Positions 1,012-45,853 of a DNA stretch of 48,018 bases are shown piece after piece. Source of the stretch: an uncultured Rickettsiales bacterium (lineage in GTDB: Bacteria > Pseudomonadota > Alphaproteobacteria > Rickettsiales > SXRF01); the NCBI GenBank assembly GCA_964409675.1, contig CAYPEF010000003.1, forward strand, positions 1 through 48,018, given 5' to 3'. The first letter of the stretch is position 1; each line of letters starts with the position of its first letter. Both the position numbers and the translations under genes were made by a program. A model generated the notes under the pieces. The model worked only from the letters and a program-made list of their open reading frames with translations, was not told where the DNA came from and did not search any database.

Positions 1012-2703
1012 ATGAGTACATCCCCAACCACACCTCCGAAACCGAAGCTCTTTGCCGTACTGGCAGGCGATAATGGGGAAATGTACCTTGCGGAAGCAAC
1101 AGCCACAAAAGTTAAAGGCAAAAATGGCACTGAATTCACCCGCTATAAGCTGCAAGAAGGCGGAGAGGCGCTCCCTGCTTCACCCCTAATGGGTACCGCA
1201 ATCACAGTCAGTAAAAACCCCCAAAATTATGCCATTCACCCTGTGACCGATACACGGCTTAACGCTAATCTTGCGCAATTCACTCATGTTGTTGCAAACG
1301 CGACCATGAATGGCAGGCCCATGCGGTTAGGTAAAATCACAAAAAGTTTTATGGGCGGGAAAACACTGCAAGACATACCGCTCGGCGAAACACCGCTGAT
1401 CGTAACTGAAGCGGAACTTGCGGTGATCGCGCAGGACGGAGCGAAAGCAAGCAATGTTCCTCAGCGTTTTATGGGTGCATATAAGGCCCATATAACGGCA
1501 CAGGAAACCGGAATAGAGCGTATAGAACGCTTTAACCAGGCAGATATGCGACGCACTCGCGCAATGGACGCCGCAAAAGCAGAGATGGATATGCTGGCTG
1601 TCGAGGCAGCATCCCTGCATAACATTAACGACACGCTGCGCACCTACCAGAATGATCATTCAATCGGCGGCTATATCGCAGGGCAACAAACACAGCTTAA
1701 GGCACGCGCGGAGAGGCTGGCAAAGCAACAGCAGGCATCCGCTAATCAATATGCCAAGCTCAGCACAATGAGCGATCCCGAAACGATATTGACGCAATTC
1801 GGTAAGCCGGAAGATACGCAGATTGCAAGAGCAGAAGCTGAGAAACTGCTTGGGCGCCCGCTTTCCACTCCTGAAACGCAACTGGCACGGAATGCACCCG
1901 CCCCTGCTCCATCGCAGGGTGCTTCCGCAACACCCGCGCCGGACGCGTATGATAAGCGATTGGCTGAGTTGCAGAAGATTGCGGATGAGAAAAGGGCAGG
2001 ATTGTTGCAAGCGTCAGAAAACGTGGAATCAATGCGAATGTCCTTCAACCGGGCTTCAACGAACGAACAAAAACTATGGGGCGATGCGATCCGTGCAAAA
2101 ATGCAACTTGAGAAAGACTATACCCTTGCTCAAAAAGAATTGGCCAAACTCCAATCGCTTGACCGGCAGCATTACCTAAAGGCTCTTGCCGACAATAAGA
2201 ACCAGGAACCCGATCTTGACGTTGCGCTAACGCAAAAGGTGCTCAAGGTGCTCGAAGAAAGTCCACCACCAAATGTAGTCGCGGGTCCAGCTCCATTACG
2301 CAACCCTGTTATTCCCACCTCCACCAGTGCCGCAGGCGACAGCGGCACCCCAGAAGGCACCGGTGAATCTCTGCTGGGCGGCGGCGCAGCCGGGATAGGC
2401 GCATTGGCGCTTCTTGGCTCTAATCCTGCAGGCTGGGCGATTGCCGCGGTGGCAGCGGTGGCGGTTGGTTACATGATCTACCAATCCAAGAATAAAAAGC
2501 CCGCCCCTGCCCCGGAAACCGTGGCTGCTAATACGCCCGCCAGCGGAAAAGCCCCGCAGGGCGCAACGCCCGCGCAGGCCCAGGCGCTGGACCCAACGCA
2601 AAATTTTACCGCCTACGCACAGCCCAATGGGCAGTATGCGCAGAACCCCAACGCGCACCTGCCCAATAATCCGCAGCAACCCGGCGGGCGAGCTCCGGCC
2701 TAG
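1012..2703 (+). CDS. Hypothetical membrane-anchored protein with a coiled-coil-like centre and a Pro/Gln/Ala-rich tail (563 aa)
   Basis: Long ORF. Heptad-like charged helical stretches at ~aa 170-400. Two adjacent hydrophobic segments at aa ~453-490 (LLGGGAAGIGALALLGS...AGWAIAAVAAVAVGYMIY). C-terminal tail rich in P/A/Q/N. Confidence 0.55.
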   Translation: MSTSPTTPPKPKLFAVLAGDNGEMYLAEATATKVKGKNGTEFTRYKLQEGGEALPASPLMGTAITVSKNPQNYAIHPVTDTRLNANLAQFTHVVANATMNGRPMRLGKITKSFMGGKTLQDIPLGETPLIVTEAELAVIAQDGAKASNVPQRFMGAYKAHITAQETGIERIERFNQADMRRTRAMDAAKAEMDMLAVEAASLHNINDTLRTYQNDHSIGGYIAGQQTQLKARAERLAKQQQASANQYAKLSTMSDPETILTQFGKPEDTQIARAEAEKLLGRPLSTPETQLARNAPAPAPSQGASATPAPDAYDKRLAELQKIADEKRAGLLQASENVESMRMSFNRASTNEQKLWGDAIRAKMQLEKDYTLAQKELAKLQSLDRQHYLKALADNKNQEPDLDVALTQKVLKVLEESPPPNVVAGPAPLRNPVIPTSTSAAGDSGTPEGTGESLLGGGAAGIGALALLGSNPAGWAIAAVAAVAVGYMIYQSKNKKPAPAPETVAANTPASGKAPQGATPAQAQALDPTQNFTAYAQPNGQYAQNPNAHLPNNPQQPGGRAPA

Positions 2704-3968
2704 GCCAGACGCTCCATCGCCACCATGCGCTCATCTTCCGCTGCATAGCGCTCCCGCCCCGCCGCCAGCGCGGCGAGCACGGCCACCAGTCCATAGGCGG
2801 TAAAATGACAGTCGCGCACCGGCTGGCGGCAGTCGAACACGGTTTCCATTTCGTCGCACATGCCGGTAAAGCGCATGCCGGCGGCATTGAGATTGCTCTG
2901 TGCGTCGCGGTTTTCATTCACGCGGTACATGCCGCCCACCGGAATGCCGTCGATCAGGTAGATCATCGGCTCGGCGAAATGCCCCTCCACCTGGTCAATA
3001 GTGGGAATGCCCTCCTGGATGATCACTTCCGACACGTGCGCGCCTTCCTTGATGACATGCATCTTGTTGCGCTCTTTCTTATTCATCTCCAGCAATTCCG
3101 AGCCGTCATGCACCGTCATGATGCCCATGCCGTAGGTGCCGGAATCGGCTTTCACGAAGACATAAGGATCCTCGGCAATGCCGTATTCCTTATGCTTGGC
3201 GCGTGCGCCTTCGATCAGCTCATCCACTGCTTTTGCCAAGCAATCCACGCCCTGGCGCTCCTTGAAGTCAATCGCCCCGCAAGCATGGAAGCGGGCGGAG
3301 AGCAGCCACGGATCAAGGCCAAAAGCGGAAGCGAATTCCCCAGATAACGCCCGATAAGCAGCGAAATGCACGCTTTTTCGGCGCTGGTACCAGCCCATTG
3401 CCATCGGCGGCAGCACGGGCTGCGCGATGCCCTCCAGCAGCGCCGACGGCCCGGAGGTGAAATCATTGTTAAGAAACACTATATCCGGTGCAAAGCCGGA
3501 TTCCGTCACCAGCCGGTTGCCGCTGCGCAGCAAGGGCTGCTCGATGATTTCCATGCCCGACGGCGCCTGCAACCTTACCGGCTCGCCCGCCAACGCCTGC
3601 AGACTGCCGAACTGCACCTCCAGGCCGGCGGAGCGGAACAGGAAAGAGAGCATGGCGAGGTTATCGAGATAGGGCAGATTGCGCGTATGGTTCTCCGGGA
3701 TGATCAGCACACGCTCCGCCATCGGATAATGCTCATTAAGATAGCTGCGGATACGCGCCGCCGCCCGTTTGCCCGCATTGACGGAGAGATTGTTGAACCC
3801 CGCCGGATAGAGGTTGGTATCCACCGGTGCCAGCCGCACCCCCGAATGGCGCAGATCCACTGAGCTGGTAAAATGCGGCGCGGCCAGGCGGCGCTGCGCG
3901 CCGAGCCATGCTTCCACCTCGTCATAGCGTCGTTCGTACAAATCCTTCAGCGTCTCCAGTATCATCAT
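2700..3968 (-). CDS. gshA: Glutamate--cysteine ligase, ~420-aa proteobacterial type (GshA-like)
   Basis: N-terminus ...FTSSVDLRHSGVRLAPVDTNLYPAGFNNL... resembles the short 'Acidithiobacillus-type' gamma-glutamylcysteine synthetase family as I recall it. ATGA start/stop overlap with the upstream rsmE. Confidence 0.55.
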   Translation of the reverse strand: MMILETLKDLYERRYDEVEAWLGAQRRLAAPHFTSSVDLRHSGVRLAPVDTNLYPAGFNNLSVNAGKRAAARIRSYLNEHYPMAERVLIIPENHTRNLPYLDNLAMLSFLFRSAGLEVQFGSLQALAGEPVRLQAPSGMEIIEQPLLRSGNRLVTESGFAPDIVFLNNDFTSGPSALLEGIAQPVLPPMAMGWYQRRKSVHFAAYRALSGEFASAFGLDPWLLSARFHACGAIDFKERQGVDCLAKAVDELIEGARAKHKEYGIAEDPYVFVKADSGTYGMGIMTVHDGSELLEMNKKERNKMHVIKEGAHVSEVIIQEGIPTIDQVEGHFAEPMIYLIDGIPVGGMYRVNENRDAQSNLNAAGMRFTGMCDEMETVFDCRQPVRDCHFTAYGLVAVLAALAAGRERYAAEDERMVAMERLA

Positions 3969-11269: not shown

Positions 11270-12364
11270 TTGAGGTATAGCATGGAAGCCAAACGGGAGC
11301 AAACCATTCTAAATCACGCGCAAGCGATTGTTTTAGAAGCATCAAAGATTGCCTTGCGCGAGCGCGCCAAGCCGGAGCTTGCATGCACCGAAGAAAAACT
11401 GCTGGAGCAGCTTAATCTGCGCTCGGGAAGCAAGGAAGACCCGGTCACGCCCGATGCATTCCTGACCGCGAAAAAACCCGCCGACAACAGCACTGTCACC
11501 AGCGCCGATATACTGGCGCAGGACTATATGCAGAAAGAACTGCATAAAATAGTGCCGGAAGCCGCTTTCACCGGTGAGGAAAAAGGCGGCGATGCCGGCG
11601 CGGAAGCTTCCTTGCGCTGGGTAGCCGACCCGGTGGACGGCACCGGTAATTTCCTGCGCGGCAAATACCCGGAGCAGAATCCTAACCCTGAGCGCCGCCG
11701 CTTCGGCCACCTGCTGGCGCTGGAGGAAGCAGGCAATCCCGTGATCGCCGTCATGTTCTGCCCCGAGCCGGACGCGAGCGCCAAGCATTTGAACGGCACG
11801 CTCTACGTCGCCACCGCCCATACCCTCACCCGCATTATCCCGGTGCGCGAGGGGGAGATGAAAACGCAGGAAGCGGTTGAAGCGCAGCCCCTTCCCCGCC
11901 CTGCCGCACCACAAACGTTTTCATACGGGACCTTCGACCCCGCCCTGCTCGGCCCGAAACACGGCCAGCCGGATACTGCGCGGCAGGCGCTCACTACTGC
12001 CGCTGCCGAGCACGGAATGCAGGGGCGGGAGATGTTCTGCTTCGCCGCCGGGGCGGAAGACGTGCTGACCGGGCGCGGCGTATGCGCCAACGGCGTTAAT
12101 TGCGAGTGGGATTCCGCCGCACCGGCGCTGCTGTTTCAGCAAGCGGGTATACCCTTTGCCGAATACGCCAACGGCACCGGGCCGGACGGCAGCGCGCGCT
12201 TCGCCATGATCGCCGCGCCGGATACCACTTCTTTTGCCGCTGTAAACGATGCATATAATGCGCAGTTTGCCGGACGCACCGACGCGCCACCGTTGCTGCG
12301 CTTCGCCCATACCACGCCGCCCTGCGCCGCGCCCGCCTCCGCTGCCGCAGGCAGAAGTCGATAA
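11270..12364 (+). CDS. Inositol-monophosphatase / CysQ (PAP phosphatase) superfamily protein
   Basis: Metal-site motifs FTGEEKGG, WVADPVDGTGNF and CEWDSAAPALLFQQAG (WDxAAG). Longer than typical family members. Confidence 0.6.
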   Translation: MRYSMEAKREQTILNHAQAIVLEASKIALRERAKPELACTEEKLLEQLNLRSGSKEDPVTPDAFLTAKKPADNSTVTSADILAQDYMQKELHKIVPEAAFTGEEKGGDAGAEASLRWVADPVDGTGNFLRGKYPEQNPNPERRRFGHLLALEEAGNPVIAVMFCPEPDASAKHLNGTLYVATAHTLTRIIPVREGEMKTQEAVEAQPLPRPAAPQTFSYGTFDPALLGPKHGQPDTARQALTTAAAEHGMQGREMFCFAAGAEDVLTGRGVCANGVNCEWDSAAPALLFQQAGIPFAEYANGTGPDGSARFAMIAAPDTTSFAAVNDAYNAQFAGRTDAPPLLRFAHTTPPCAAPASAAAGRSR

Positions 12365-12429: not shown

Positions 12430-13398
12430 ATGCCGACCCCGGACATTGCCACCACCAAGCGCCTCTACCATTCCATGCAGCTCATCCGCCGCGTGGAGGA
12501 GCATATCTGCGAAGTCTATCACACCGACGCCATCAAAAGCCCGGTGCACCTCTCCATCGGCCAGGAATCGGTGGCCAGCGGCATCTGCGACGCCATGCAG
12601 GCCGACGACATGGTTTCCAACACCTACCGCTGCCACGCCACCTACATCGCCAAGGGCGGCGATTTGCGCCAGATGATGGCCGAGCTCTACGGCAAATCCG
12701 GCGGCTGCGCGGGCGGCAAGGCGGGCTCGATGCATTTGATCGACATGCCAAACGGCGTGATGGGCGCATCCGCTGTGGTCGGCACCACCGTGCCGGTAGC
12801 GGCGGGCTATGCGCAAGCGCTGCAGTGGGATGCCAAAAAAACCGGCAAGCAGCGCGCCGTAGTCGCCATCTGCGGCGATGGAGCCACCGAGGAAGGCGGC
12901 TACAGCGAAACGCTCAATTACGCCGCGCTGAAAAAACTCCCCATCCTGTTCGTGGTGGAAAATAACGGCTTCGCCATTCACACCCCCATCTTCCGCCGCC
13001 AGCCCAACTGGAATTTGCGCGCCCGCGTGGAAACCTACGGCATCCCCACCCAGTTTATCGATAACGGCGACGTCTTCACCATCCGCGAAGCCACCGCGCA
13101 GGCGCTCGCCCACATCCGTAACGGCGAAGGTCCGCAATTTTTAGAGTGCACCACCTACCGCTGGATGGAGCATGTCGGCCCTACCGACGACCACGACCAC
13201 GGCCCCTACCGCGATTTGAAGGAATACGCCCGCTGGAAGGAATCCGACCAGATCGCCAGACTCGCCAAAACCCTCGGCAAGGAAGCCGAAGCCATCAATT
13301 TGCAGGTAGAAGCCGAACTGCGCGACGCCGTGGATTTCGCCGAAGCCTCGCCCTACCCCTCTAATGCCGAACTGATGAGCCACGTCTATGCCGCATAA
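12430..13398 (+). CDS. ThDP-dependent 2-oxoacid dehydrogenase E1 component, alpha subunit-like
   Basis: E1_dh-type motifs: YRCHATYIAKG, GSMH, ICGDGATEEGGYSETLNYA (ThDP/Mg GDG-x-N motif), TYRWMEHVGPTDD. Confidence 0.85.
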   Translation: MPTPDIATTKRLYHSMQLIRRVEEHICEVYHTDAIKSPVHLSIGQESVASGICDAMQADDMVSNTYRCHATYIAKGGDLRQMMAELYGKSGGCAGGKAGSMHLIDMPNGVMGASAVVGTTVPVAAGYAQALQWDAKKTGKQRAVVAICGDGATEEGGYSETLNYAALKKLPILFVVENNGFAIHTPIFRRQPNWNLRARVETYGIPTQFIDNGDVFTIREATAQALAHIRNGEGPQFLECTTYRWMEHVGPTDDHDHGPYRDLKEYARWKESDQIARLAKTLGKEAEAINLQVEAELRDAVDFAEASPYPSNAELMSHVYAA

Positions 13399-14494
13399 CC
13401 TCGCCCTGAAAGAACGCGAACCCACCAAGGCCACGGATAACAAGCGCCTGATCCGCTACGTGGATGCCATTGCCGAGGCCTGCGCGCAGGCGATGGAAGA
13501 AGATGAGCGCGTATTCGTCTTCGGCCTTGACGTGGACGACCATAAATCCATCCAGGGCTCCACGGCGGGCCTCGTGGAGAAATTCGGGCCGGACCGCTGC
13601 TTCGGCACGCCGCTTTCGGAAGACGCGATGACCGGCATGGCCATCGGCGCGGCTATGGCAGGTTACCGCCCGGTGCATGTGCATATCCGCATGGATTTCA
13701 TGCTGCTGGCCATGAACCAATTGATCAATATCGCCGCCAAGGCGCATTACATGTATAATGGCCAGGTGCGCGTGCCTTTGGTGGTTCGCACCATGGTGGG
13801 CCGCTCCTGGGGTCAGGGCGCGCAGCATTCCCAGGCGCTGCATTCCATGTTCATGCATGTGCCGGGCCTTAAAGTGGTGGCCCCCTCCAACGCGCATGAT
13901 GCCAAGGGCTGCATGCTGGCCGCCATCCGCGATGATTCTCCCGTGATTTTCATGGAGCACCGCCTGCTCTGCAACATGCAGTCCTATGTGGACGAGGCAA
14001 TGTACGAAGTTCCCTTCGGCAAGGCGCGCGTGATGCATGAGGGCAAGGACGTCACCATCCTCGGCATCTCGCATATGGTGATTGAGGCCTTGCGCGCTTC
14101 GCATTACCTTGAAAAATCCGGCATCTCCGCCGAAGTGATCGACCCGATTTCCCTGCGCCCGCTGGATATGGATACCATCATTGCCTCCGTTAAAAAAACC
14201 GGCCGCTTATTGATCGTGGACAATGGCTGGCAGATGTGCGGCGCGGGCGCGGAGATCATGGCGCAGGTGTTCGAGCGGCTGCCGCAAGGCGTGAACGGCA
14301 AACCGGTCGCCATGAAGCGCATGGGCTTCGCCGATACGCCCTGCCCCACCACCAAGCCACTGGAAAACCTGTTTTACCCCAACGGCAAAACCATCGCCGA
14401 AGCCGCTTTCCGTCTGGTAGATCCAAATGGCAAGATCGACCTTCCTGCCGATCATGAGATCAAGGAAGTCGATGAATTCAAAGGGCCGTTTTAA
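13388..14494 (+). CDS. ThDP-dependent E1 component, beta subunit-like (transketolase pyrimidine-binding plus C-terminal domains)
   Basis: DERVFVFGLDV...KFGPDRCFGTPLSEDAMTGMAIGAAMAGYRPV... typical of E1 beta. 11-nt overlap with the alpha gene. Confidence 0.85.
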   Translation: MPHNLALKEREPTKATDNKRLIRYVDAIAEACAQAMEEDERVFVFGLDVDDHKSIQGSTAGLVEKFGPDRCFGTPLSEDAMTGMAIGAAMAGYRPVHVHIRMDFMLLAMNQLINIAAKAHYMYNGQVRVPLVVRTMVGRSWGQGAQHSQALHSMFMHVPGLKVVAPSNAHDAKGCMLAAIRDDSPVIFMEHRLLCNMQSYVDEAMYEVPFGKARVMHEGKDVTILGISHMVIEALRASHYLEKSGISAEVIDPISLRPLDMDTIIASVKKTGRLLIVDNGWQMCGAGAEIMAQVFERLPQGVNGKPVAMKRMGFADTPCPTTKPLENLFYPNGKTIAEAAFRLVDPNGKIDLPADHEIKEVDEFKGPF

Positions 14495-15216
14495 TGGCGC
14501 AGGCTGCCTCCCTCCTCTCCGCTGAAGACACGCTTCTCACCCAGTATGCGCGCGACGGCTATTGCATTCAGGAAAACGTGTTTTCCCCGCAGGAATGCGA
14601 TCATTTAATTGCGGCGGCGAAAGAATTGCCGGACTACCGGCAGGGCATCGTCAAGCCCGCCATGATGCCGCACCGCGTGGATGCCATCTTCCTGCACGCA
14701 CTGAAAAACCCCGCCATCGTCACCATGATGGAAAAGCTGGTGGGCGGCAAGGCAGCCGGCCTGCAAACCGAATTCTTCTACTGCAAGCCCGGCACGCGCG
14801 GCTTTTCCAACCATCAGGATAATTTCTTCGTGCAGGCCCCGTTCGGCGTGTTTGCCTCCGCGTGGATCGCGCTGACCGACACCTATAAGGAAAAAGGCGG
14901 CCTGATCGTCTATCCCGGCACACATGAAGAAGGCCTGCTGCCGGTGCGCCCGGTTGCCATAAGCAAGGATAGCGGCCAGGACCCCAATGCCAACAACGAA
15001 GAATGCGTCATCCCGCCTCGCTACCAGCCGCTGAACGCCTCCGTCCCCAAAGGCGCGGTGCTCTATATCCATGGCCACGTGGTGCACGGCTCCAACCCCA
15101 ACACCACCGATGAATGGCGCTACGTATTGCTCAATACCTACGTCAAAAAAGGCGAGCCCTTCCGCGCCGGTAAATATGCCCAGCGTGAAGAGGTGAATCT
15201 CTACCAATCCGCCTGA
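14494..15216 (+). CDS. Phytanoyl-CoA dioxygenase (PhyH) family Fe(II)/2-oxoglutarate oxygenase
   Basis: HxD motif in GFSNHQDNFF, distal His in IHGHVVHGSNPN. TAATG overlap with the E1 beta stop. Confidence 0.75.
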   Translation: MAQAASLLSAEDTLLTQYARDGYCIQENVFSPQECDHLIAAAKELPDYRQGIVKPAMMPHRVDAIFLHALKNPAIVTMMEKLVGGKAAGLQTEFFYCKPGTRGFSNHQDNFFVQAPFGVFASAWIALTDTYKEKGGLIVYPGTHEEGLLPVRPVAISKDSGQDPNANNEECVIPPRYQPLNASVPKGAVLYIHGHVVHGSNPNTTDEWRYVLLNTYVKKGEPFRAGKYAQREEVNLYQSA

Positions 15217-16496
15217 TGGCCTTACTCAAGCGCATTGCCCTAACCCTCCCCCCGCTTCAAAAGCTGCACAAGCAGCGCAACGGACTGCTGTTGGAACGTA
15301 ATGCGCTGCTGGCGGCGCAACATGAGCTGGAGCAGCGCATCCGGGTGCTGCATTTTCAGGCACAGCAGCAGGCGAATACGCTAAATACCTTGCAGGCTCA
15401 ACTCCAGAACGAAACCCTACTTCGGCAAGCATCTGAGGCAACCCTTCAGACGCAGGCCACCGCTTGCGCCGCGCTGGAGGCCCTGCTCGCTGAACGGGAT
15501 GCGCTGATTACCGAGCAGGAAGCAGCGCAGGCGCGTGCGGAAGCCGAAGCGCTGGCGGCAACGCCTTTTATACCAGCCTGTCTCACCAATCCCTGGTGTC
15601 AGCTTTTGGATAAAGCAGAGGAATGCACAACCCGCCCCGACACGCCGGACATCGCCTTTCTCTGCTCGCACGGGCGCACCGGAAACCGCTGGCTTGGGCG
15701 GGTGCTGAATCTGCATCCTGAGATGGTCTGCGGCGTTGGCCCGCTCATGCGCCCCTATGTTGAATATGACAGCTGTACCGATGACTCGGTAATATTTGAC
15801 CCTAATGAAATTGATATTGTCGAGCATTTCCAGGCGGCATCGGTAGACAAAATGCTAAGCACCCTCAAAGCCTACAAAACCGGCTACCGGTTTTACGTGC
15901 GCGCCCATGCCATCAACGCCTTTCAGCTCATGCTGAATATCCGCGAACAACCGCCAGGGGTGCGCGTCAGCATTGCCAATGTCATCCGCCACCCGGTGAC
16001 GCGTGCGCCGTCCTATGCGCGCGAATGGCTGCATACGGACGGCACCGACCTTCACGCCCATATGGAAACCCTATGGGAATCCGGCGAGCATTACCGCATC
16101 TGCGAAGATGAGATCCGCACCCGCTTCCCGGAGATTGACCTGAACACGCGGGAAAACCGGTATTTCATCATGGGCATATTCTGGCTGTGGAACGATTTGA
16201 GCGATTTCACCCTGCCCATCCGGCATTTCCGGTTTGAAGAGCTGACCGGGCATAACGAGCTGCTTTGCGGGTTCCTGACCCATTTGCTCGGCAAGGATTT
16301 TATCATCACCCCGGACTATATCGCCAAAATAAAAGCGGAGCGCCCGGCAAACTACCGCGCCGCGCCGAAGGCAGCGGTAGAAGTCTACGCTAACTGGCAG
16401 CCCTGGCAGAAATATTGCTTTCGCCGCTTTATGGAAGCGTATAATATCGATGCAGCTTTCCAGCCCTTCGGATATGATTTTTCCTTCATCGATTAG
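15216..16496 (+). CDS. N-terminal coiled-coil plus sulfotransferase-like domain protein
   Basis: aa ~15-115 are Leu/Gln/Ala/Glu-rich heptad-like sequence. aa 148-170, FLCSHGRTGNRWLGRVLNLHPEM, resembles the PAPS 5'-phosphosulfate loop (GxxRSGTTxL...HP). aa 257-267, IRHPVTRAPSY, resembles the 3'-phosphate motif (RxPxDxxxS). TGATG overlap with the PhyH stop. Confidence 0.55.
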   Translation: MALLKRIALTLPPLQKLHKQRNGLLLERNALLAAQHELEQRIRVLHFQAQQQANTLNTLQAQLQNETLLRQASEATLQTQATACAALEALLAERDALITEQEAAQARAEAEALAATPFIPACLTNPWCQLLDKAEECTTRPDTPDIAFLCSHGRTGNRWLGRVLNLHPEMVCGVGPLMRPYVEYDSCTDDSVIFDPNEIDIVEHFQAASVDKMLSTLKAYKTGYRFYVRAHAINAFQLMLNIREQPPGVRVSIANVIRHPVTRAPSYAREWLHTDGTDLHAHMETLWESGEHYRICEDEIRTRFPEIDLNTRENRYFIMGIFWLWNDLSDFTLPIRHFRFEELTGHNELLCGFLTHLLGKDFIITPDYIAKIKAERPANYRAAPKAAVEVYANWQPWQKYCFRRFMEAYNIDAAFQPFGYDFSFID

Positions 16497-16504
16497 GAGT
16501 CAGC

Positions 16505-17557
16505 ATGCGCAATATCAGCTATACTTCGCGGTTTACCCGCCTTCTTACCAAGCGCCGCGTGTTCAAGGATTCGCCGCTTTGCGTGCTGGATGTGGGTGCG
16601 CGCGGCGGCCCGCAATCGCACTGGCCGCTCTATGACCGGGACATTAACGTGATCGGTTTCGAGCCGCATGCCGAGGAATGCAAGCGCCTCAACGGCATCG
16701 CCTCCTCCTTCAACGTTCCCTTCACCTGCTACCCCGTGGGGCTGGGGCGTGAGGAATTCACCGCTCGGCTTTATGAATATCCGAACAAGGCCGCCAACAG
16801 CCTGATACCGCCGCAGGGCGTGGAAAACCCTGCCTATACCGACATTCACGTCACGCGCTTCGACCGTTTTGCCGCCCAGCACAATATCAGCAAAGTCGAT
16901 TTCGCCAAGCTTGACGTAGAGCGCCATGAAATGGAGGCGCTGGAAGGCATGGAAGCGTGGCTGGGTGGCGATAACCCGATCTTCGGCCTCGAAATCGAGG
17001 TGCATTTCAAGCCCGATGGCGATACGCCGCTCTTCTCCGATATTGAACTATACCTGCGCCGCCACGGCTACCGCGTGGCGGATCTTGATATATTCAAAGC
17101 TTCCAGCAACGCCATGCCTGCCCCGGTGGCATGGGACCACCGCAATCATTTGAACGAGCCGATCCTAGGCCCCACCACCACCGGGGAAATGATCCACGGA
17201 GATGCGCTGTTCTTCCTGGATTTAAGCCGTGTCAACCCCGAGTGGATGCGTGCAAAAGGGCCACTTTATATCCTCAAATGCGCCTCTTTGTTTGAAGTGT
17301 ACGGCCTGCCGGATTGCGCGGCGGAGCTATTGCTCCAATACAGCGGCGAGGTGGAGCAGGTGATATCGGTGGACGAAGCCCTGAACGCGCTAGTGCCGGA
17401 CCATTTTGGCCAGGGACTCACCTATCAGCAATATTTGAAGACTTATCAAGAGCGCGTCGGACGCCCGGTCACGCCGGAAGCACCAGCCGCTGCCAGCCAA
17501 ACGGGAGAAAAATCTTCCATTGCCAAAGTCTTTCGCCTGATTAAAGGCGCTGCCTAA
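16505..17557 (+). CDS. FkbM-family SAM-dependent methyltransferase
   Basis: VLDVGARGG SAM motif, DFAKLDVERHEMEALEG (FkbM KxDxEGxE motif). AGGAG SD 7 nt upstream. Confidence 0.75.
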   Translation: MRNISYTSRFTRLLTKRRVFKDSPLCVLDVGARGGPQSHWPLYDRDINVIGFEPHAEECKRLNGIASSFNVPFTCYPVGLGREEFTARLYEYPNKAANSLIPPQGVENPAYTDIHVTRFDRFAAQHNISKVDFAKLDVERHEMEALEGMEAWLGGDNPIFGLEIEVHFKPDGDTPLFSDIELYLRRHGYRVADLDIFKASSNAMPAPVAWDHRNHLNEPILGPTTTGEMIHGDALFFLDLSRVNPEWMRAKGPLYILKCASLFEVYGLPDCAAELLLQYSGEVEQVISVDEALNALVPDHFGQGLTYQQYLKTYQERVGRPVTPEAPAAASQTGEKSSIAKVFRLIKGAA

Positions 17558-17611: not shown

Positions 17612-18448
17612 TCACGCCAACTCTAAATCCGCCAAATGCGATTTAGCACGCTCCACCGCTTCCGCTGGGAAGTGCGAGGGGTAATGCACCGGCATGCCCT
17701 TCAGGGAGATCTTCTGCCAGCCGTCGCCTTTTTTCTGCATGGCCCAGAAACCGCCCCACATGGAAACTTCGCCGAAAATCTCCTGCACGGCAAGCGTGAC
17801 GCCGGGGTGGAAGTTGCGGCCTGTTTTAGGGTCCTTAATAAAATCGCGGTCATGGTTGGCTTTCGCGTTGGCCTGGTCTACCTGGCTCCATTGCAGATTC
17901 AGATCATCGCCGCAGATGATGCCGCCTTCGCGCACCATGGGCATGGAGAGCATAATATCCTTTTTCACTGGCTCGTAGGTATGGTCGGCGTCAATGAAGA
18001 CCACGTCGAACGTATCGCGCCCCATCAGTGGCAGGATGTTTTCGCTTTTGCCGCGTAAATGCTGGCAGTTGATGCTGCCGGGCAGCGTGCGAATGTTATG
18101 CAGGAAGATATTATAGGCCGTGTCGGATCCCAGCGAATGCTCCATCGCCACATAGACATCGTCCTGATGCTTGGAGCGGTCGAAGAACGGCACCCAGCCG
18201 TCCACGCAGGTCAGGCTCCCCTGCCCGCCATTATGCAGCGCCAAGCCTTCCCCCCAGGAAAGCGCCGACGCGCCGTACCATGAGCCGATCTCCAGGATGC
18301 GCAAATCCGGGCGCTTGCCCTGCTTGGTTAAATACCATACGCATCCCATCATGAACACATGGCGCACGGGCGCGCTCAGAATGCCGTATTGCATATCGAA
18401 TAACGGCTTATCGCCGGCGACGGTCTTCAGGAGGGCTTGATAGGACAT
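17612..18448 (-). CDS. Class I SAM-dependent (O-)methyltransferase
   Basis: ILEIGSWYGASALSWGEG (motif I), VFIDADHTYEPVKKD. Start trimmed to MSYQALLK (18448), 4 nt after the upstream stop. Confidence 0.7.
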   Translation of the reverse strand: MSYQALLKTVAGDKPLFDMQYGILSAPVRHVFMMGCVWYLTKQGKRPDLRILEIGSWYGASALSWGEGLALHNGGQGSLTCVDGWVPFFDRSKHQDDVYVAMEHSLGSDTAYNIFLHNIRTLPGSINCQHLRGKSENILPLMGRDTFDVVFIDADHTYEPVKKDIMLSMPMVREGGIICGDDLNLQWSQVDQANAKANHDRDFIKDPKTGRNFHPGVTLAVQEIFGEVSMWGGFWAMQKKGDGWQKISLKGMPVHYPSHFPAEAVERAKSHLADLELA

Positions 18449-18452
18449 AATC

Positions 18453-19367
18453 TCACATTGCTTGGAGTTGATCGGAAGAGTGCGGGAAATACGCTTCACC
18501 CGGCGCATAGACAATCCGCCTGCGCCCGGTGCCCTGGTAGACCACCGGCATCCGCCGGTAATCCTCCACGGGGATAATGCGGATATCCATCGAGGCGCGG
18601 GTATGGTGCAACAGCGGCTCGCCGGTATGGATGCAGCGGGAATCAAAGGCGAACATCTTGCCAAACGGCGTTTTCACCTGCGGCGCAAATGCATTCAGCG
18701 ATTGGTTAAAGGCGGGGTCATTCACCGCCTTATCGATAAACGGCGCGAAGCGGTAGCCGAAGCCTTCCAGCACGCGGCGCGAATCCGCCACATTCATGCA
18801 GCGGAAGCCATGCCCCTGCTCGCCTTCCGGCGCGGTCAGCGGAATCCAAATATTGATTTCCTGCGGCGGATGGCCATAGCCGATATCGGTATGGTAGCGC
18901 GGATAATGGTGGTTGTTCTCCCCGTCCGGGCAGTGAATGCGGATGGTGGTGGTGGCCTGGAAATAGGACGCATAAGGGAAATAGCGCTGCACGCATTCCC
19001 CGATAAAACGGTGATAGAGCGCCATAAACGCCTCATCGGCATCATAGAGCAAGGTACTGATTTTATTCACTCCGTCATTAAACCCATACGCTTTCAGTTC
19101 ATGCCCGATGCGCGCATGCAGCGCCTGAAGCGGCTCCACGGCCTGCGCAATGCCTTGCGCACGCAGCAGGCGCAGCACGCCGTCGCGGAAGCCTTCCGCG
19201 AAGGGCGCGCAGTCCAGCTCGGCATGGTCGGCGCCGAATTCACGCTGGAAACGGCTTTGTGCAGCATATTCGCCCATCATCAGCTCCGCCCGCTCATCCT
19301 CGGTTAAGGCATGGATATTCACCTGCGCATGCGCGGCAGGTGCGGTGGCGTTAGCAGAGGAGGGCAT
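18453..19367 (-). CDS. PhyH-like Fe(II)/2OG dioxygenase-like protein (divergent)
   Basis: YHTDIGYGHPPQEINIWIPLT (HxD followed by a beta-strand), FGKMFAFDSRCIHTGEP...RASMDIR (distal His and Arg). Confidence 0.5.
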   Translation of the reverse strand: MPSSANATAPAAHAQVNIHALTEDERAELMMGEYAAQSRFQREFGADHAELDCAPFAEGFRDGVLRLLRAQGIAQAVEPLQALHARIGHELKAYGFNDGVNKISTLLYDADEAFMALYHRFIGECVQRYFPYASYFQATTTIRIHCPDGENNHHYPRYHTDIGYGHPPQEINIWIPLTAPEGEQGHGFRCMNVADSRRVLEGFGYRFAPFIDKAVNDPAFNQSLNAFAPQVKTPFGKMFAFDSRCIHTGEPLLHHTRASMDIRIIPVEDYRRMPVVYQGTGRRRIVYAPGEAYFPHSSDQLQAM

Positions 19368-20485: not shown

Positions 20486-21422
20486 TTCGCAACTGCACAC
20501 CCTTGCCCCCGAACAGGTGGCGGCGAAGTTCGGCCTTAGCCGCGAACAACTGCTGAGTTTGCTGGGCAACCACGCCTGGCCGTCGCTTACCTACCGGGTA
20601 ATCAAGGGCGCGGAGCGCGACGACGTGATGCTCGGCATCCTGAAGCGTATCGATTCCGGCACCATGCGCATCGTCGGCGGCAATGACAACGCGGTCTGGG
20701 AACAGGGCTGGGGGGAAATCCTCACTCAAGTCAAGAACAAAGGATTTAGCCCTACCATCCTGCGCCCGCAATATTTCGACCATCACCGCATCATGCGCCT
20801 GAACGGCGAGTATGTGGACGGCGGTGACGCGCGGTTTGTCTACGAGTATGACCAGCTGCTGCGCCGCATCGTCTTTTCGCATTACCTGAAGGGTACTTCC
20901 AAGATCGTCGAACTCGGCTGCGGCACCGGCACCAGCCAGTTGCTGCTGGCCGAATTGCTGCCAAACGCGAAACTGGTGGCCAGCGACTGGGCAACGCCTT
21001 CGCAGGAGATCGTGCGCCAAATCGGCGCATACACCAAGCGTGACATTAAGCCGGTGAACTTCAACATGCTAACGCTGGAAGGCTGGGAAAACCTGGAGAT
21101 CGATGCGCAGTCCACCGTGCTGACCGTCCACGCGCTGGAACAGCTCGGTGGCGGCTGCACGGAGCTGCTGGACCGGCTGGTGAAGGCCAAGCCCAAAATG
21201 TGCCTGCATTTCGAGCCGATTGTGGAGCTGTACGACGAAAACGCCCTTTTCGATTACCTCGCCATCAAATACCACACCACGCGCAATTATTTGAGCAATT
21301 GGCTCAGCACCCTGCGCACACTTGCCAAGGCGGGCAAGGTGGAGATCATGGAAGAGCGCCGCCTTGCCTTCGGCGACCGGTATCACGAGGCTTATTCCGT
21401 TATCGCCTGGCACCCCTTGTAA
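20454..21422 (+). CDS. Class I SAM-dependent methyltransferase
   Basis: KIVELGCGTGTSQLLLAELLPNAKLVASD (motif I plus acidic motif II). Confidence 0.7.
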   Translation: MTYALKSSPADSQLHTLAPEQVAAKFGLSREQLLSLLGNHAWPSLTYRVIKGAERDDVMLGILKRIDSGTMRIVGGNDNAVWEQGWGEILTQVKNKGFSPTILRPQYFDHHRIMRLNGEYVDGGDARFVYEYDQLLRRIVFSHYLKGTSKIVELGCGTGTSQLLLAELLPNAKLVASDWATPSQEIVRQIGAYTKRDIKPVNFNMLTLEGWENLEIDAQSTVLTVHALEQLGGGCTELLDRLVKAKPKMCLHFEPIVELYDENALFDYLAIKYHTTRNYLSNWLSTLRTLAKAGKVEIMEERRLAFGDRYHEAYSVIAWHPL

Positions 21423-21441
21423 TCCCGGTAACAGCAGACGC

Positions 21442-23364
21442 ATGCATACGCTGACACCCGTTGATTACGGCTATGTGGATACGATAGCCAATAATATCCG
21501 TTACTCCCTGGGCATCCGCCGCCCCGCCGAGCCGATTGCGTCCGGCGTGCTGCTTTCCATCCATGTGCAGTCCAACCGACCGGATAATTTCGTCAAGTTC
21601 CTGGACGATCTGGAAGCGAGCATTGACGACCCCGCTAATATCGAAGTGGTGGTGAAAATCGACGACACGGACGCAGAAATGAACGCGCTGCTGCCGCTGG
21701 AAGTGGCCAAGCGCCCATTTGCCGTGAAATACCTCTCCACACCACTGGTGGGCGGCTTCTTTGAGCTGTGGCGCTCAATGAACGATATGCTCAATGTATG
21801 CGACCCCAACGCCTATTTCCTCTGGAACATGAACGACGAAATGGCGGTGCTGAACAAGGGCTGGGACAGTATGCTTAAGAAATATGTCGGCCTGTTCCCC
21901 GACCATATTTTCCGCCTGCGCACTTCGCTCTTCCGTTCGCGCAATTACTGCGATTTCTGGGAGTGCGGCTTTGCACCGGAAACCTCCGCCATCACCACCA
22001 AGCGCTGGATTGATATCGGCGGCAACTGGAACCCCTGCCTGGGGCCGGACAGTTTCCAGCAATGCGTGGCCTATTACTTCGCCTACCACGACCGTTTCAA
22101 CAAGTTTAAACCCCTGCGTGAAGTGCCGATCCACGACATTACCCTTGCCGGCGAAGGCGCTTTCATCGGATTAGAGGGCGAAAAACTCTGGAAACGCATG
22201 CGTGGGGCAACCAAGGCCTGGTTCCGTCTGATGTCGCCAAAAATACAAACCGAAGCATCCCGGCGCGCGCAGAAGCTGCATGCCCATGTTTGCGCCACCA
22301 ATAACCGCCTGACGGATTTTACCATACAGGATCATGCCTTTACCGAAACCATCGTCCTGACCGATAACGAAACCGGCCTCATTATCCGCAAATTCCCGTA
22401 TCACTTGTCATACACGCGCATCTGGCTTACCAATGGCTGGCGGGCCGCGCGCTATCTCTATTACGGAGGCGGCGGCGCACGGGCAATCCGCTCATTACCC
22501 GTCAGTATTATCACCTTCCTTTCGCTGCGTTATAAAAGCTTTGAATGGGTCTACCGCTTCAGCCACCGCTACCGCAAATGGCGGGACAGCCTGCTGACCA
22601 ATACGCTGCAAGCGGCATCAATGCTATACGTAAAAAACAAACTGCGCTTGCTGCGCCTGCGGCGGAAAATCCTTAATCAGATGCAAACATCGTTATCCTG
22701 GACCATTACCGGCGCGCACCATATCCGCCACCAGTTGCGCCGCCTGTACGCAGCGCTTGTCGGCGAGTTGCGCAGCCTGTTTTACGACACTCCCGTCTGG
22801 TCAGCGTTTAAAACAATTAAGCATTATAACCGCCACACGGCGCAACTTACACTGTATCCATTCCGCATATTGCGTGAACTGGCCAAACGCAGTGCGCTGA
22901 ACGTACTGAACAGGGGATATGCGTTTGATGAGCGCAATATCCAACTCACCCGGCTTGATCTGAACCTGGATTGGCATGCAATCAACGTCGCCATGCTGTT
23001 CGCTACCCTGCCGGAGCGTTTCGTCAATCCGCGCTTCCGCAACGCCACCATGCGCTGCATATTGCTCAAGCACTGGTATAATCTTACCGATCAACAGTTG
23101 CAAGAAGCGCTATTAAACGATGTGGGGCTGCGCTATTTCCTCGGGCTGCGGGCGCACCAACGCGTTCCCACCATCTCCGCCATCCGCGCCTTGCAGGATA
23201 TGCTGACGGAAGAAAACGTATTGCCGAAGGTCTTTGCCATTGTCGATGCCGAAATCGCGCGCGAACAGCTCCCCAAGCTTGGCGCTATATCCCCGGCGAT
23301 TCCAGCGGAATCACCAGGCGCGGCAGATGCGATCCCTCCCCTCCGGCTCGCCGCCGCCGGATAG
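21442..23364 (+). CDS. Composite ORF: GT-A-like N-terminal domain, Arg-rich helical middle, IS5-type transposase N-terminal domain at the C-terminus
   Basis: N-terminal ~330 aa carry acidic motifs (KIDDTDAE, NMNDEM) suggestive of a GT-A fold. The C-terminus matches the InsH N-terminal domain. Start trimmed to MHTLTP (21442). Confidence 0.45.
   Translation: MHTLTPVDYGYVDTIANNIRYSLGIRRPAEPIASGVLLSIHVQSNRPDNFVKFLDDLEASIDDPANIEVVVKIDDTDAEMNALLPLEVAKRPFAVKYLSTPLVGGFFELWRSMNDMLNVCDPNAYFLWNMNDEMAVLNKGWDSMLKKYVGLFPDHIFRLRTSLFRSRNYCDFWECGFAPETSAITTKRWIDIGGNWNPCLGPDSFQQCVAYYFAYHDRFNKFKPLREVPIHDITLAGEGAFIGLEGEKLWKRMRGATKAWFRLMSPKIQTEASRRAQKLHAHVCATNNRLTDFTIQDHAFTETIVLTDNETGLIIRKFPYHLSYTRIWLTNGWRAARYLYYGGGGARAIRSLPVSIITFLSLRYKSFEWVYRFSHRYRKWRDSLLTNTLQAASMLYVKNKLRLLRLRRKILNQMQTSLSWTITGAHHIRHQLRRLYAALVGELRSLFYDTPVWSAFKTIKHYNRHTAQLTLYPFRILRELAKRSALNVLNRGYAFDERNIQLTRLDLNLDWHAINVAMLFATLPERFVNPRFRNATMRCILLKHWYNLTDQQLQEALLNDVGLRYFLGLRAHQRVPTISAIRALQDMLTEENVLPKVFAIVDAEIAREQLPKLGAISPAIPAESPGAADAIPPLRLAAAG
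22954..23259 (+). mobile_element. IS5 (InsH)-family transposase N-terminal domain remnant; no DDE catalytic domain follows
   Basis: LDWHAINVAM...RFRNATMRCILLKHWYNLTDQQLQEALLNDVGLRYFLGL...VPTISAIRALQDML...VFAIVDAEI aligns with E. coli InsH ...LPWQNMVEVI...[41 protein letters not shown]...LPDRTTIMNFRHLL...LFKTINRWL (InsH recalled from memory). Confidence 0.6.
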
Positions 23365-45052: not shown

Positions 45053-45853
45053 TTACAAGTAATAAACGAAATTGCGCCGCCCGATATGGTAGCAGCCATA
45101 GCCGATCATCATCGCCACCACTGATACTGCGCAGGATTTCAGCAGCATGGCAAGCGTCGGCAGCGTATGATGATAGACCAGCTCCACCGCCGGCTGCATC
45201 AGGATAACAATCGGGTTCCATTGCAAGATGGCCTGCACCCATTCCGGCACGGCGGCTACCGGATAAACAATGGCGCTGAACCAGAATAGCATGTTCATGG
45301 CCACCATAATCGCCTCGCCGATATCGCGCACATACGGCGCGGTGAAGGCAATGCCGATCGCCATTCCCATGACGGCGCCCAGCACCGGCAGGAAATAAAT
45401 GGGCCATAACAGCACATGCAGCGACACCGGCGCGCCCAGCAGGGTAACGAACCCCAGCATCGTTAGAAATGCGATGAAATATGTATAGACGTTGCGGAAT
45501 ACATCCGCGATCGGGAAAATGGTGGAGGAGATCATACAGCGCTTAAGCGTCTCCCCTTGCGCCAGCAGCGACGCGCTCGCCCCGATCATCGAGGAAGAAA
45601 TGAACCCCCACAGCGGCAGTGTGCAGATGATATAAAGCGTATAATCTGAATGCGGCATGCGCATAATCATCGGCATAATCACCGAATAAACAATCACCAT
45701 CGAAAGCGGCTGGAACAGCGTCCAGAGGATGCCAAGATAGGAATTGCGGTACTGGCGCGTCAACCCGCTTTTGGCGATCAGCACGGCGGTGCGCCAGTAA
45801 TAAGGATCAAGGAATATGGCGAATTGTCGCATACGGCTAGGCACTGGCTGCAT
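45053..45853 (-). CDS. wzm: ABC-2 type polysaccharide export permease
   Basis: ~266 aa with six hydrophobic segments, ABC-2 layout. 17-nt overlap with the upstream ATPase gene. Confidence 0.8.
   Translation of the reverse strand: MQPVPSRMRQFAIFLDPYYWRTAVLIAKSGLTRQYRNSYLGILWTLFQPLSMVIVYSVIMPMIMRMPHSDYTLYIICTLPLWGFISSSMIGASASLLAQGETLKRCMISSTIFPIADVFRNVYTYFIAFLTMLGFVTLLGAPVSLHVLLWPIYFLPVLGAVMGMAIGIAFTAPYVRDIGEAIMVAMNMLFWFSAIVYPVAAVPEWVQAILQWNPIVILMQPAVELVYHHTLPTLAMLLKSCAVSVVAMMIGYGCYHIGRRNFVYYL

Follow-up and report, generated by a model that had tools for sequence, protein, structure and literature searches.

The stretch of DNA analysed here (the window, 48,018 nucleotides of contig CAYPEF010000003.1 from an uncultured Rickettsiales bacterium) carries a large glycan locus, and the subject of this report is one gene within it, the open reading frame (ORF) at 15216-16496, whose product has a predicted sulfotransferase fold and is referred to as ST (protein label P0001). 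The source genome is 2.27 Mb in size and 94.9% complete, and the contig has a G+C content of ~58%. The locus encodes a GDP-heptose pathway (GmhA, HddA, GmhB, and HddC), a GDP-sugar 4,6-dehydratase, a DegT aminotransferase-fold enzyme, an Fcl-like reductase, a CDP-glucose branch with a C-methyltransferase and an RmlC-like epimerase, at least five methyltransferases, a carbamoyltransferase, an acyltransferase, three GT2 glycosyltransferases, and the ABC transporter components Wzm and Wzt. Re-translation of the ST gene reproduced exactly the ORF described in a first-pass annotation of this DNA, which had read the product as a coiled coil joined to a sulfotransferase-like domain. The ATG of the gene overlaps the stop codon of an upstream gene for a PhyH-type dioxygenase as TGATG. 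Coordinates of all features are collected in Table 1.

From its modelled fold and its cofactor motifs, the catalytic domain of ST is well supported as a member of the sulfotransferase superfamily that lies outside all curated sequence families. The AlphaFold model of the domain, built on a 97-sequence family alignment, had a predicted local distance difference test score (pLDDT) of 87.1. In a Foldseek comparison with the PDB the top 48 matches were all sulfotransferases dependent on 3'-phosphoadenosine-5'-phosphosulfate (PAPS), with probabilities of 0.9-1.0; SULT7A1 was the best match (E 1.3e-5), and 3-OST-1, TPST1/2, NDST1, and the CurM sulfotransferase were among the others. An independent, poorer first model again matched the sulfotransferase fold, so that structure prediction, proposed in the first-pass annotation as a check, returned the fold it had named. 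Stf0 (1tex) and retinol dehydratase were also present in the fold lists, with guanylate kinases and zeta toxins lower down; a Walker A GK[ST] motif is not present in ST.

The two cofactor motifs are consistent with this fold. The segments FLCSHGRTGNRW...LNLHPE (aa 148-169) and NVIRHPVTRAPSY (aa 255-267) lie ~105 aa apart, in agreement with the earlier description of motifs resembling the 5'-phosphosulfate-binding (PSB) loop and the 3'-phosphate-binding (3'-PB) element at sulfotransferase spacing, and both, including the PSB loop HGRTGNRW, are invariant in the five closest homologues. When the family profile was aligned to the Alicyclobacillus sulfotransferase 3rnl, GRTGNRW of ST (aa 153-159) fell on AKCGTSS (in AAKCGTSSL), with R154 on the PSB Lys, and RHPVTRAPS fell on RNPVDRAFS (in LRNPVDRAFSAY); this alignment is marginal by score but correct. 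Residue conservation was counted in the 97-sequence alignment. In the PSB loop G153 was retained in 96/97 sequences and W159 in all 97, and in the 3'-PB motif R258 and P260 were both kept in 97/97 and S266 in 93/97. His231, at the end of the core strand 226-230, was present in 91/97 and is a candidate catalytic base by analogy with His108 of cytosolic SULTs. Glu341 (97/97) lies in a segment, RFEEL, that presumably corresponds to the (Y/F)E(D/E)L strand known from sulfotransferases of the bacterial and heparan-sulfate types. Further conserved motifs, W-x-x-W-Q and G-Y-D-F-S-F, are found toward the C-terminus, and a ~30-residue insert at aa 175-203 was modelled with low confidence.

Compared with the solved sulfotransferases SULT7A1 (5x2b), 3-OST-1 (3uan, 1zrh), TPST1/2 (5wrj, 3ap3), NDST1 (8cd0), CurM (4gbm), and 3rnl, ST has the same alpha/beta fold, a PSB loop after strand 1, a 3'-PB helix with the Arg...Ser pair, and, following the second core strand, a conserved His. 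It differs from them in sequence (11-16% identity), in its unusual loop S-H-G-R-T-G-N-R-W, and in the extra insert. The Arg in place of the PSB Lys and the spacing between the two motifs are features that we take to resemble the TPSTs. Relatives of ST also connect the clade to known families: the Pfam model Sulfotransfer_3 (PF13469) was matched by 15/97 relatives at E <= 0.01, and in two long relatives (P0040 and P0067) the ST-clade domain is paired with a canonical Sulfotransfer_1 domain.

Homologues of ST were recovered mainly by exhaustive profile search. A word-indexed search of 5.8 billion proteins yielded only four homologue clusters with 41-55% identity, and the exhaustive profile search yielded 414 representatives (E <= 1e-3, counted at 50% clustering) that share a core of ~280 aa. 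Among genome contigs, a profile scan with one family alignment (A1) found no ST relative in the GTDB representatives, and a scan with another (A3) gave one good locus (L005) and one weak locus (L006). Architectures were counted in 147 representatives with a complete domain. The domain stands alone in 103 of these (70%), an N-terminal extension of at least 30 aa is present in 44, and a coiled-coil signal is present in 16 (~11%), in extensions of 70-665 aa. Coiled-coil-bearing relatives include P0006, P0011, P0116, and a 768-aa protein of an Alphaproteobacteria metagenome-assembled genome (MAG). C-terminal extensions occur in 13 relatives. The C-terminal extension of a 441-aa relative in G381 is beta-rich, ~150 aa long, and without a Pfam match.

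The stalk of ST was predicted by AlphaFold, with the deeper alignment, as one unbroken helix spanning aa 12-113 (pLDDT 85-92). Residues 14-113 consist of 21% A, 20% L, 16% Q, and 11% E, together 68%. In a fixed heptad register over aa 14-111, L, I, V, or M occupied 14 of the 28 a/d positions, a count matched by 0/5000 shuffles, and a leucine zipper L17-L24-L31-L38-L45-(Q52)-L59 was reached by 0.8% of shuffles (p ~0.008). A Fourier test for a hydrophobic periodicity of 3.5 residues, both global and windowed, was significant for relatives and not for ST. Because the fixed-register count was significant and the Fourier test was not, the coiled coil of ST is moderately supported, as real but irregular rather than textbook. 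The heptad-like stretch of ~100 aa noted in the first-pass annotation is thus borne out, at this moderate level, by a predicted helix of ~100 residues and a significant heptad pattern. No DNA tandem repeat was found beneath the coil, and no other protein of the locus gave a coiled-coil signal.

Ahead of the stalk lies a short conserved peptide, MALLKRIALTLPPLQKLHKQRNGL, termed the handle, with the consensus [KR]x[LI]AL.[IVL]P[PA][IL]..L[HY]..R[ND].L. The handle precedes a coil in ST, in its orthologue from locus L002 (P0004), and in a second subfamily (P0088, P0114, P0140, and P0153-P0157) whose catalytic domains are only ~20-25% identical to that of ST. The hydrophobic moment of the peptide is modest (0.4-0.5), and the motif was not found in other ORFs of the source genome. 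The two nearest orthologues in the syntenic cassette described below, P0002 and P0003, have no coil. One relative of 975 aa (P0064) combines ankyrin repeats, the ST domain (aa ~302-584), and a Wzt_C domain (aa 835-956, 2e-13); here a module of the cap-reading type is carried by the sulfotransferase and not by the transporter. New in this analysis are the recurrence of N-terminal coils, the handle in two subfamilies, and the Wzt_C fusion. ST represents a new clade of sulfotransferases, with handle, stalk, and enzyme arranged in this order, in ABC-transporter glycan loci.

The ST gene is part of a 12-gene cassette whose gene order is conserved (syntenic) in the metagenome contigs L001 and L002. 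The cassette begins with the Fcl-like reductase, an IMPase-like phosphatase, E1 alpha, E1 beta, PhyH, ST, and FkbM, continues on the opposite strand with a second methyltransferase and an oxygenase-like gene, and ends with a 323-aa unknown, a methyltransferase-like gene, and a ~600-aa unknown. In both contigs, too, PhyH immediately precedes the ST gene. The FkbM methyltransferase gene that the first-pass annotation had placed after ST was recovered at that place in the window, with two family matches (Table 1). Identity to the window is 50-55% for ST and 54-83% for its neighbours, ST being the least conserved in this comparison. Both contigs also contain additional sulfotransferase genes.

Table 1. 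Coordinates of the ST gene, its parts, and associated genes. Positions refer to the window except in the last two rows.
Feature	Position	Strand	Basis or remark
Whole ST gene: N-terminal handle, coiled-coil stalk, linker, sulfotransferase-fold domain	15216..16496	+	426 aa, ORF list/translation
Conserved N-terminal peptide (handle), aa 1-24	15216..15287	+	Motif common to relatives; putative function
Long helix / coiled-coil stalk, aa 12-113	15249..15554	+	AlphaFold helix, heptad count
Low-confidence linker, aa 114-140	15555..15635	+	pLDDT <50 at aa 115-133 in both models
Sulfotransferase-fold catalytic domain, aa 141-426	15636..16493	+	Foldseek vs PDB
5'-PSB loop CSHGRTGNRWL, aa 150-160	15663..15695	+	Alignment to 3rnl, family conservation
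His231, candidate catalytic base	15906..15908	+	Family conservation; analogy with His108 of cytosolic SULTs
3'-PB motif, aa 255-267	15978..16016	+	Alignment to 3rnl, family conservation
Glu341 in strand motif RFEEL	16236..16238	+	Kept in 97/97 family sequences
Inositol monophosphatase (IMPase)-superfamily phosphatase heading the operon	11270..12364	+	PF00459; true start may be further downstream
Thiamine diphosphate (ThDP)-dependent E1 alpha and E1 beta, two overlapping genes	12430..14494	+	PF00676, PF02779/PF02780
PhyH-type Fe(II)/2-oxoglutarate dioxygenase, translationally coupled to the ST gene	14494..15216	+	PF05721, 1.4e-25
FkbM-family methyltransferase, 8 nt downstream of the ST gene	16505..17557	+	PF05050, TIGR01444
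Wzm permease	45053-45853	-	PF01061
Short Wzt ATPase, 262 aa	45837-46625	-	PF00005
G018 tandem ST-clade genes and APS kinase, L017 (G018:C92:23596-27291)	ORFs 1001-1603, 1504-2610, 2632-3564	-	
Further canonical sulfotransferases	G000:C109:4040-4870, G000:C21:2075-2755, G000:C78:6880-7449		Source genome

Genes for E1 alpha and E1 beta accompany ST-clade genes in six loci, including L001, L002, G018, L046, and L048, and E1 alpha/beta or split-transketolase genes are present beside distant clade members (22-29% identity) in the last three. FkbM genes are found near ST-clade genes in L001, L002, L046, and L007, and a third family, represented in the window by an unknown ORF of 680 aa (21322-23364, + strand), co-occurs with the ST clade in six loci. 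Even distant clade members thus co-occur with E1 alpha/beta, FkbM, and the 680-aa family, and ST is therefore tied to one particular elaborate sugar, which is probably C2-branched and methylated. In G018 a heptose / E1 alpha-beta / PhyH locus lies ~5 kb from tandem ST genes, and its GMD and E1 beta are 83% and 82% identical, respectively, to those of the window.

Counterparts of the 680-aa protein are encoded at L001:15982-17781 and L002:8653-10386 (54-56% identity over aa ~44-668) and at L007:12329-17128, with paralogues in G018, L048, and L007. The protein has a conserved IS5/DUF772-like tail, which is not a recent accidental fusion, since the L001 and L002 orthologues align through aa ~44-668. 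Its core (aa ~73-426) is represented by three paralogues directly downstream of a coiled-coil ST in G001. Two motifs, VVVKIDDTD and NMNDE, resemble those of GT-A enzymes. An hhalign run of the core against local GT2 proteins fell short of significance (probability 0.4%), so that a possible role as a glycosyltransferase stays a motif-level guess, and a PDB sequence search with the 680-aa protein and with a 337-aa unknown gave no match. In L046 (11656-14244) and L048 (4842-7379), fusions of GT2 with GT41 (TPR-type) of 845-862 aa lie beside handle-bearing sulfotransferases of the second subfamily and are candidates for the polymerase of those loci.

Some gene starts in the cassette require comment. 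The IMPase-like gene scored 60.9 bits against the NCBIfam model HisN and 37.8 bits against CysQ, both far under cut-off, and its best PDB matches were IMPase/SuhB. Its L001 counterpart is only 26% identical and 297 aa long, for which reason the gene ranks as the most weakly conserved of the cassette and the TTG start of the window gene is probably too far upstream. The Methyltransf_24 ORF at 17612-18664 (- strand), 350 aa long when read from its TTG, runs into the next ORF (18453-19367); since the L001 and L002 orthologues are only 278 aa, its real start is probably ~70 codons further in.

Genes for PAPS supply are encoded in the source genome, with an adenosine 5'-phosphosulfate (APS) kinase (201.8 bits) and CysD/CysH-family genes. 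In G018, a genome of the same family as the source, two tandem ST-clade genes (368 and 310 aa, no coil) adjoin an APS kinase gene (111 bits), and in G078 an APS kinase gene (96 bits) lies 4.5 kb from an 827-aa ST-clade fusion protein. PAPS dependence is independently supported by this proximity of APS kinase genes to clade genes in two genomes. In addition, other contigs of the small source genome carry two or three more sulfotransferase genes of canonical type (PF13469 / PF00685), which suggests that sulfation is used more widely by the organism.

Wzm and Wzt are encoded near ST-clade genes in four independent settings. In addition to the window, these are G001 (Alphaproteobacteria MAG OZ244931.1), where the 768-aa coiled-coil ST is ~13 kb from Wzm/Wzt; G253, where GT2, wzm, and wzt are followed directly by the ST gene on one strand; and L046, where the distance to Wzm/Wzt is 3 kb. 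The Wzt of the window matches ABC_tran only (aa 42-174), the best NCBIfam match (Wzt/RfbE) spans aa 39-238, and with a length of 262 aa there is no room for a carbohydrate-binding module (CBM), consistent with the earlier annotation that this Wzt lacks a cap-recognising C-terminal domain. A search of the whole source genome, at its 94.9% completeness, did not find Wzt_C (PF14524), and Wzt is short and without a CBM in all four settings. Two candidates for a long Wzt were rejected as CBM-bearing transporters: that of G253 is an over-called ORF, and that of G078 is a MalK-type ATPase with a TOBE domain.

Taken together, ST is probably a PAPS-dependent glycan O-sulfotransferase of a previously unmodelled clade that is tethered to a membrane complex and decorates the Wzm/Wzt glycan. 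Carrying this reading are the fold, the cofactor-binding motifs, the genomic PAPS supply, the conserved synteny, and the Wzm/Wzt context, with further support from the relatives that match known sulfotransferase families and from the handle kept in two subfamilies. The catalytic domain (aa ~141-426) would take sulfate from PAPS and attach it to a hydroxyl group of the glycan that the locus makes, and the acceptor would most likely be the rare branched methylated sugar made by the co-inherited E1 alpha/beta, PhyH, and FkbM genes. The N-terminal peptide and the ~100-residue stalk may oligomerise ST and tether it to a partner or a membrane-associated assembly complex, in which case the enzyme would work on the polymer while it is still lipid-linked and not yet exported, and not on a nucleotide sugar. 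A role in decoration without termination has precedents in LpsS and NodH of Sinorhizobium meliloti and in Stf0 of mycobacteria, which carry out PAPS-dependent sulfation of lipopolysaccharide, lipo-chitooligosaccharide, or trehalose. These enzymes belong to recognised Pfam sulfotransferase families, and we know of no coiled-coil stalk or N-terminal handle in any of them.

Several observations weigh against parts of this interpretation. The target-normalised TM-scores (TMt) of ST against solved sulfotransferases were moderate (0.45-0.55). The profile searches that had also been proposed as a check turned out negative for ST itself: no sulfotransferase model, nor any other, was matched in Pfam and NCBIfam scans, even at E = 1. 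Searched against PDB sequences, the 97-sequence profile returned marginal matches only (E 0.08-0.5), mostly to sulfotransferases, and a 5-sequence profile returned chance-level matches only, with a kinase on top. The PSB Arg154 is kept in only 53/97 family sequences. A reading of the IMPase-like gene as CysQ, a phosphatase for 3'-phosphoadenosine-5'-phosphate (PAP), found no specific support in NCBIfam or the PDB, and one relative (P0158, in L045) lies outside any recognisable glycan locus. No activity, acceptor, or sulfated glycan is reported for any family member.

In known capped systems two hallmarks are found: a coiled-coil protein with a distal terminating module, and a cap-reading CBM on Wzt; transporters without a CBM, e.g. 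that of Klebsiella pneumoniae O2a, couple export to extension (PMC11231755). The ST locus has the first of these hallmarks and lacks the second. WbdD, the kinase-methyltransferase terminator with a ruler of Escherichia coli O9a and K. pneumoniae O3, resembles ST as a modifying enzyme on an extended coiled coil; in both, the opposite end of the coil bears a short conserved element, and the gene belongs to a Wzm/Wzt-dependent locus (PMC3482155, PMC11231755). The two differ in chemistry (a kinase and SAM methyltransferase in WbdD, a PAPS sulfotransferase in ST), in order (enzyme-coil-anchor in WbdD, handle-coil-enzyme in ST), and in transporter, the Wzt partner of ST being without a CBM; furthermore, an effect of ST on chain length is hypothetical. 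WbbB of K. pneumoniae O12 and the O4 and O7 terminators (GT99/GT137 Kdo transferases and the methyltransferase-kinase ORF6-O7) likewise place chemically diverse modules distally on a coiled coil, and ORF6-O7 has a CBM of its own, as has the ST relative P0064 (PMC11231755). In contrast to ST, whose cap is putative, these systems have CBM-bearing Wzt proteins and proven caps, and in WbbB and ORF6-O7 polymerising glycosyltransferase modules are fused to the coil, whereas ST stands alone. There is no sequence homology between ST and WbdD, WbbB, or the O4/O7 terminators; the resemblance is in layout only.

The first-pass annotation had proposed that ST is such a terminator. Of this proposal the sulfotransferase, through fold, motifs, transitive profile matches, and APS kinase, and the ABC-transporter glycan locus were upheld; that ST also caps the non-reducing end with sulfate, with the handle bound to the polymerase or the membrane and the coil serving as a ruler for a minimum chain length, is a reading we regard as unlikely. 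It would be analogous to WbdD and WbbB, with sulfate chemistry and a Wzt without a CBM. A coiled coil on a modifying enzyme in a Wzm/Wzt locus is a marker of terminator systems (PMC11231755), and ST is the sole coiled-coil protein of its locus; N-terminal coils recur in the clade behind a conserved peptide, P0064 is fused to Wzt_C, the gene order of G253 resembles wzm-wzt-wbdD, and the three 680-aa paralogues follow the coiled-coil ST of G001. The objection raised earlier that the coil of ST is N-terminal has little weight, because what counts in WbdD and WbbB is that the catalytic module and the anchor or partner site are at opposite ends of the coil, and ST, with its handle as the putative anchor or partner site, has this layout as well. 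However, all characterised terminated systems have a Wzt CBM (PMC11231755), and Wzt is short here and in G001, G253, and L046, with no PF14524 in the source genome. P0002 and P0003 do without a coil and most representatives are domain-only, the heptad regularity of ST is weaker than that of its relatives, and the ST gene is translationally coupled to precursor enzymes, not to glycosyltransferases, at a distance of 29 kb from wzm/wzt. The extra sulfotransferase genes of L001 and L002 suggest general decoration. A variant, which we likewise hold to be doubtful, is that a stalk of 0-665 residues, depending on lineage, docks by its handle to polymerising glycosyltransferases, possibly of the 680-aa family, and that a sulfate cap sets the length; in this variant Wzt would need no CBM, and in some relatives the binding module would be on the sulfotransferase itself.

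It is highly improbable that ST instead sulfates a soluble nucleotide-sugar intermediate, perhaps at a hydroxyl introduced by PhyH, with the coil serving oligomerisation only and the sulfate either retained or serving only transiently, as the group that leaves during elimination or ring closure, following the logic of CurM and OLS. PhyH, ST, and FkbM follow one another in tight translational coupling, an order conserved in three loci, E1 alpha/beta precursor enzymes accompany the clade in six, and the activating sulfotransferases of CurM and OLS and retinol dehydratase are among the fold matches. Yet the fold is matched equally well by polymer and peptide sulfotransferases (3-OST-1, TPST, and NDST1) as by small-molecule ones, the conserved handle and variable-length stalk are hard to explain on this basis, in G018 the clade genes lie apart from PhyH and E1 alpha/beta in the locus, and no thioesterase or eliminating partner is evident. 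Least probable of all is that ST is not an active sulfotransferase and represents a degenerate or repurposed P-loop-like fold, as a scaffold subunit or kinase-like enzyme of the assembly complex. The failure of sulfotransferase HMMs to match ST, the variation of the PSB basic residue in the family, and the guanylate kinases and zeta toxins in the fold lists are compatible with such a loss of function, but sulfotransferases occupy the top 48 fold ranks, the sulfotransferase-specific Arg and Ser of the 3'-PB motif are fully or almost invariant with no Walker A motif, the PSB loop is invariant in the subfamily of ST itself, and APS kinase genes lie near clade genes in two genomes.

To our knowledge, sulfation is rare among the surface glycans of bacteria; it is known mostly from chemical work, and few enzymes have been assigned to it. 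A literature search, which did not extend to the 2019 Glycobiology census of terminator chemistries by Mann, Kimber, and Whitfield, found no description of a sulfotransferase terminator. The present analysis defines a sulfotransferase clade of ~414 representatives that is missed by current family databases and is genetically linked to glycans exported by ABC transporters, to APS kinase, and to enzymes for branched methylated rare sugars. If the ruler reading were true, ST would be the first sulfate-based coiled-coil terminator, the strategy would extend to transporters without a cap-reading module, and a model that now rests on a handful of enterobacterial prototypes would be widened. Even if ST only decorates the glycan, its N-terminal peptide is a candidate address tag that would recruit modifying enzymes to the assembly complex.

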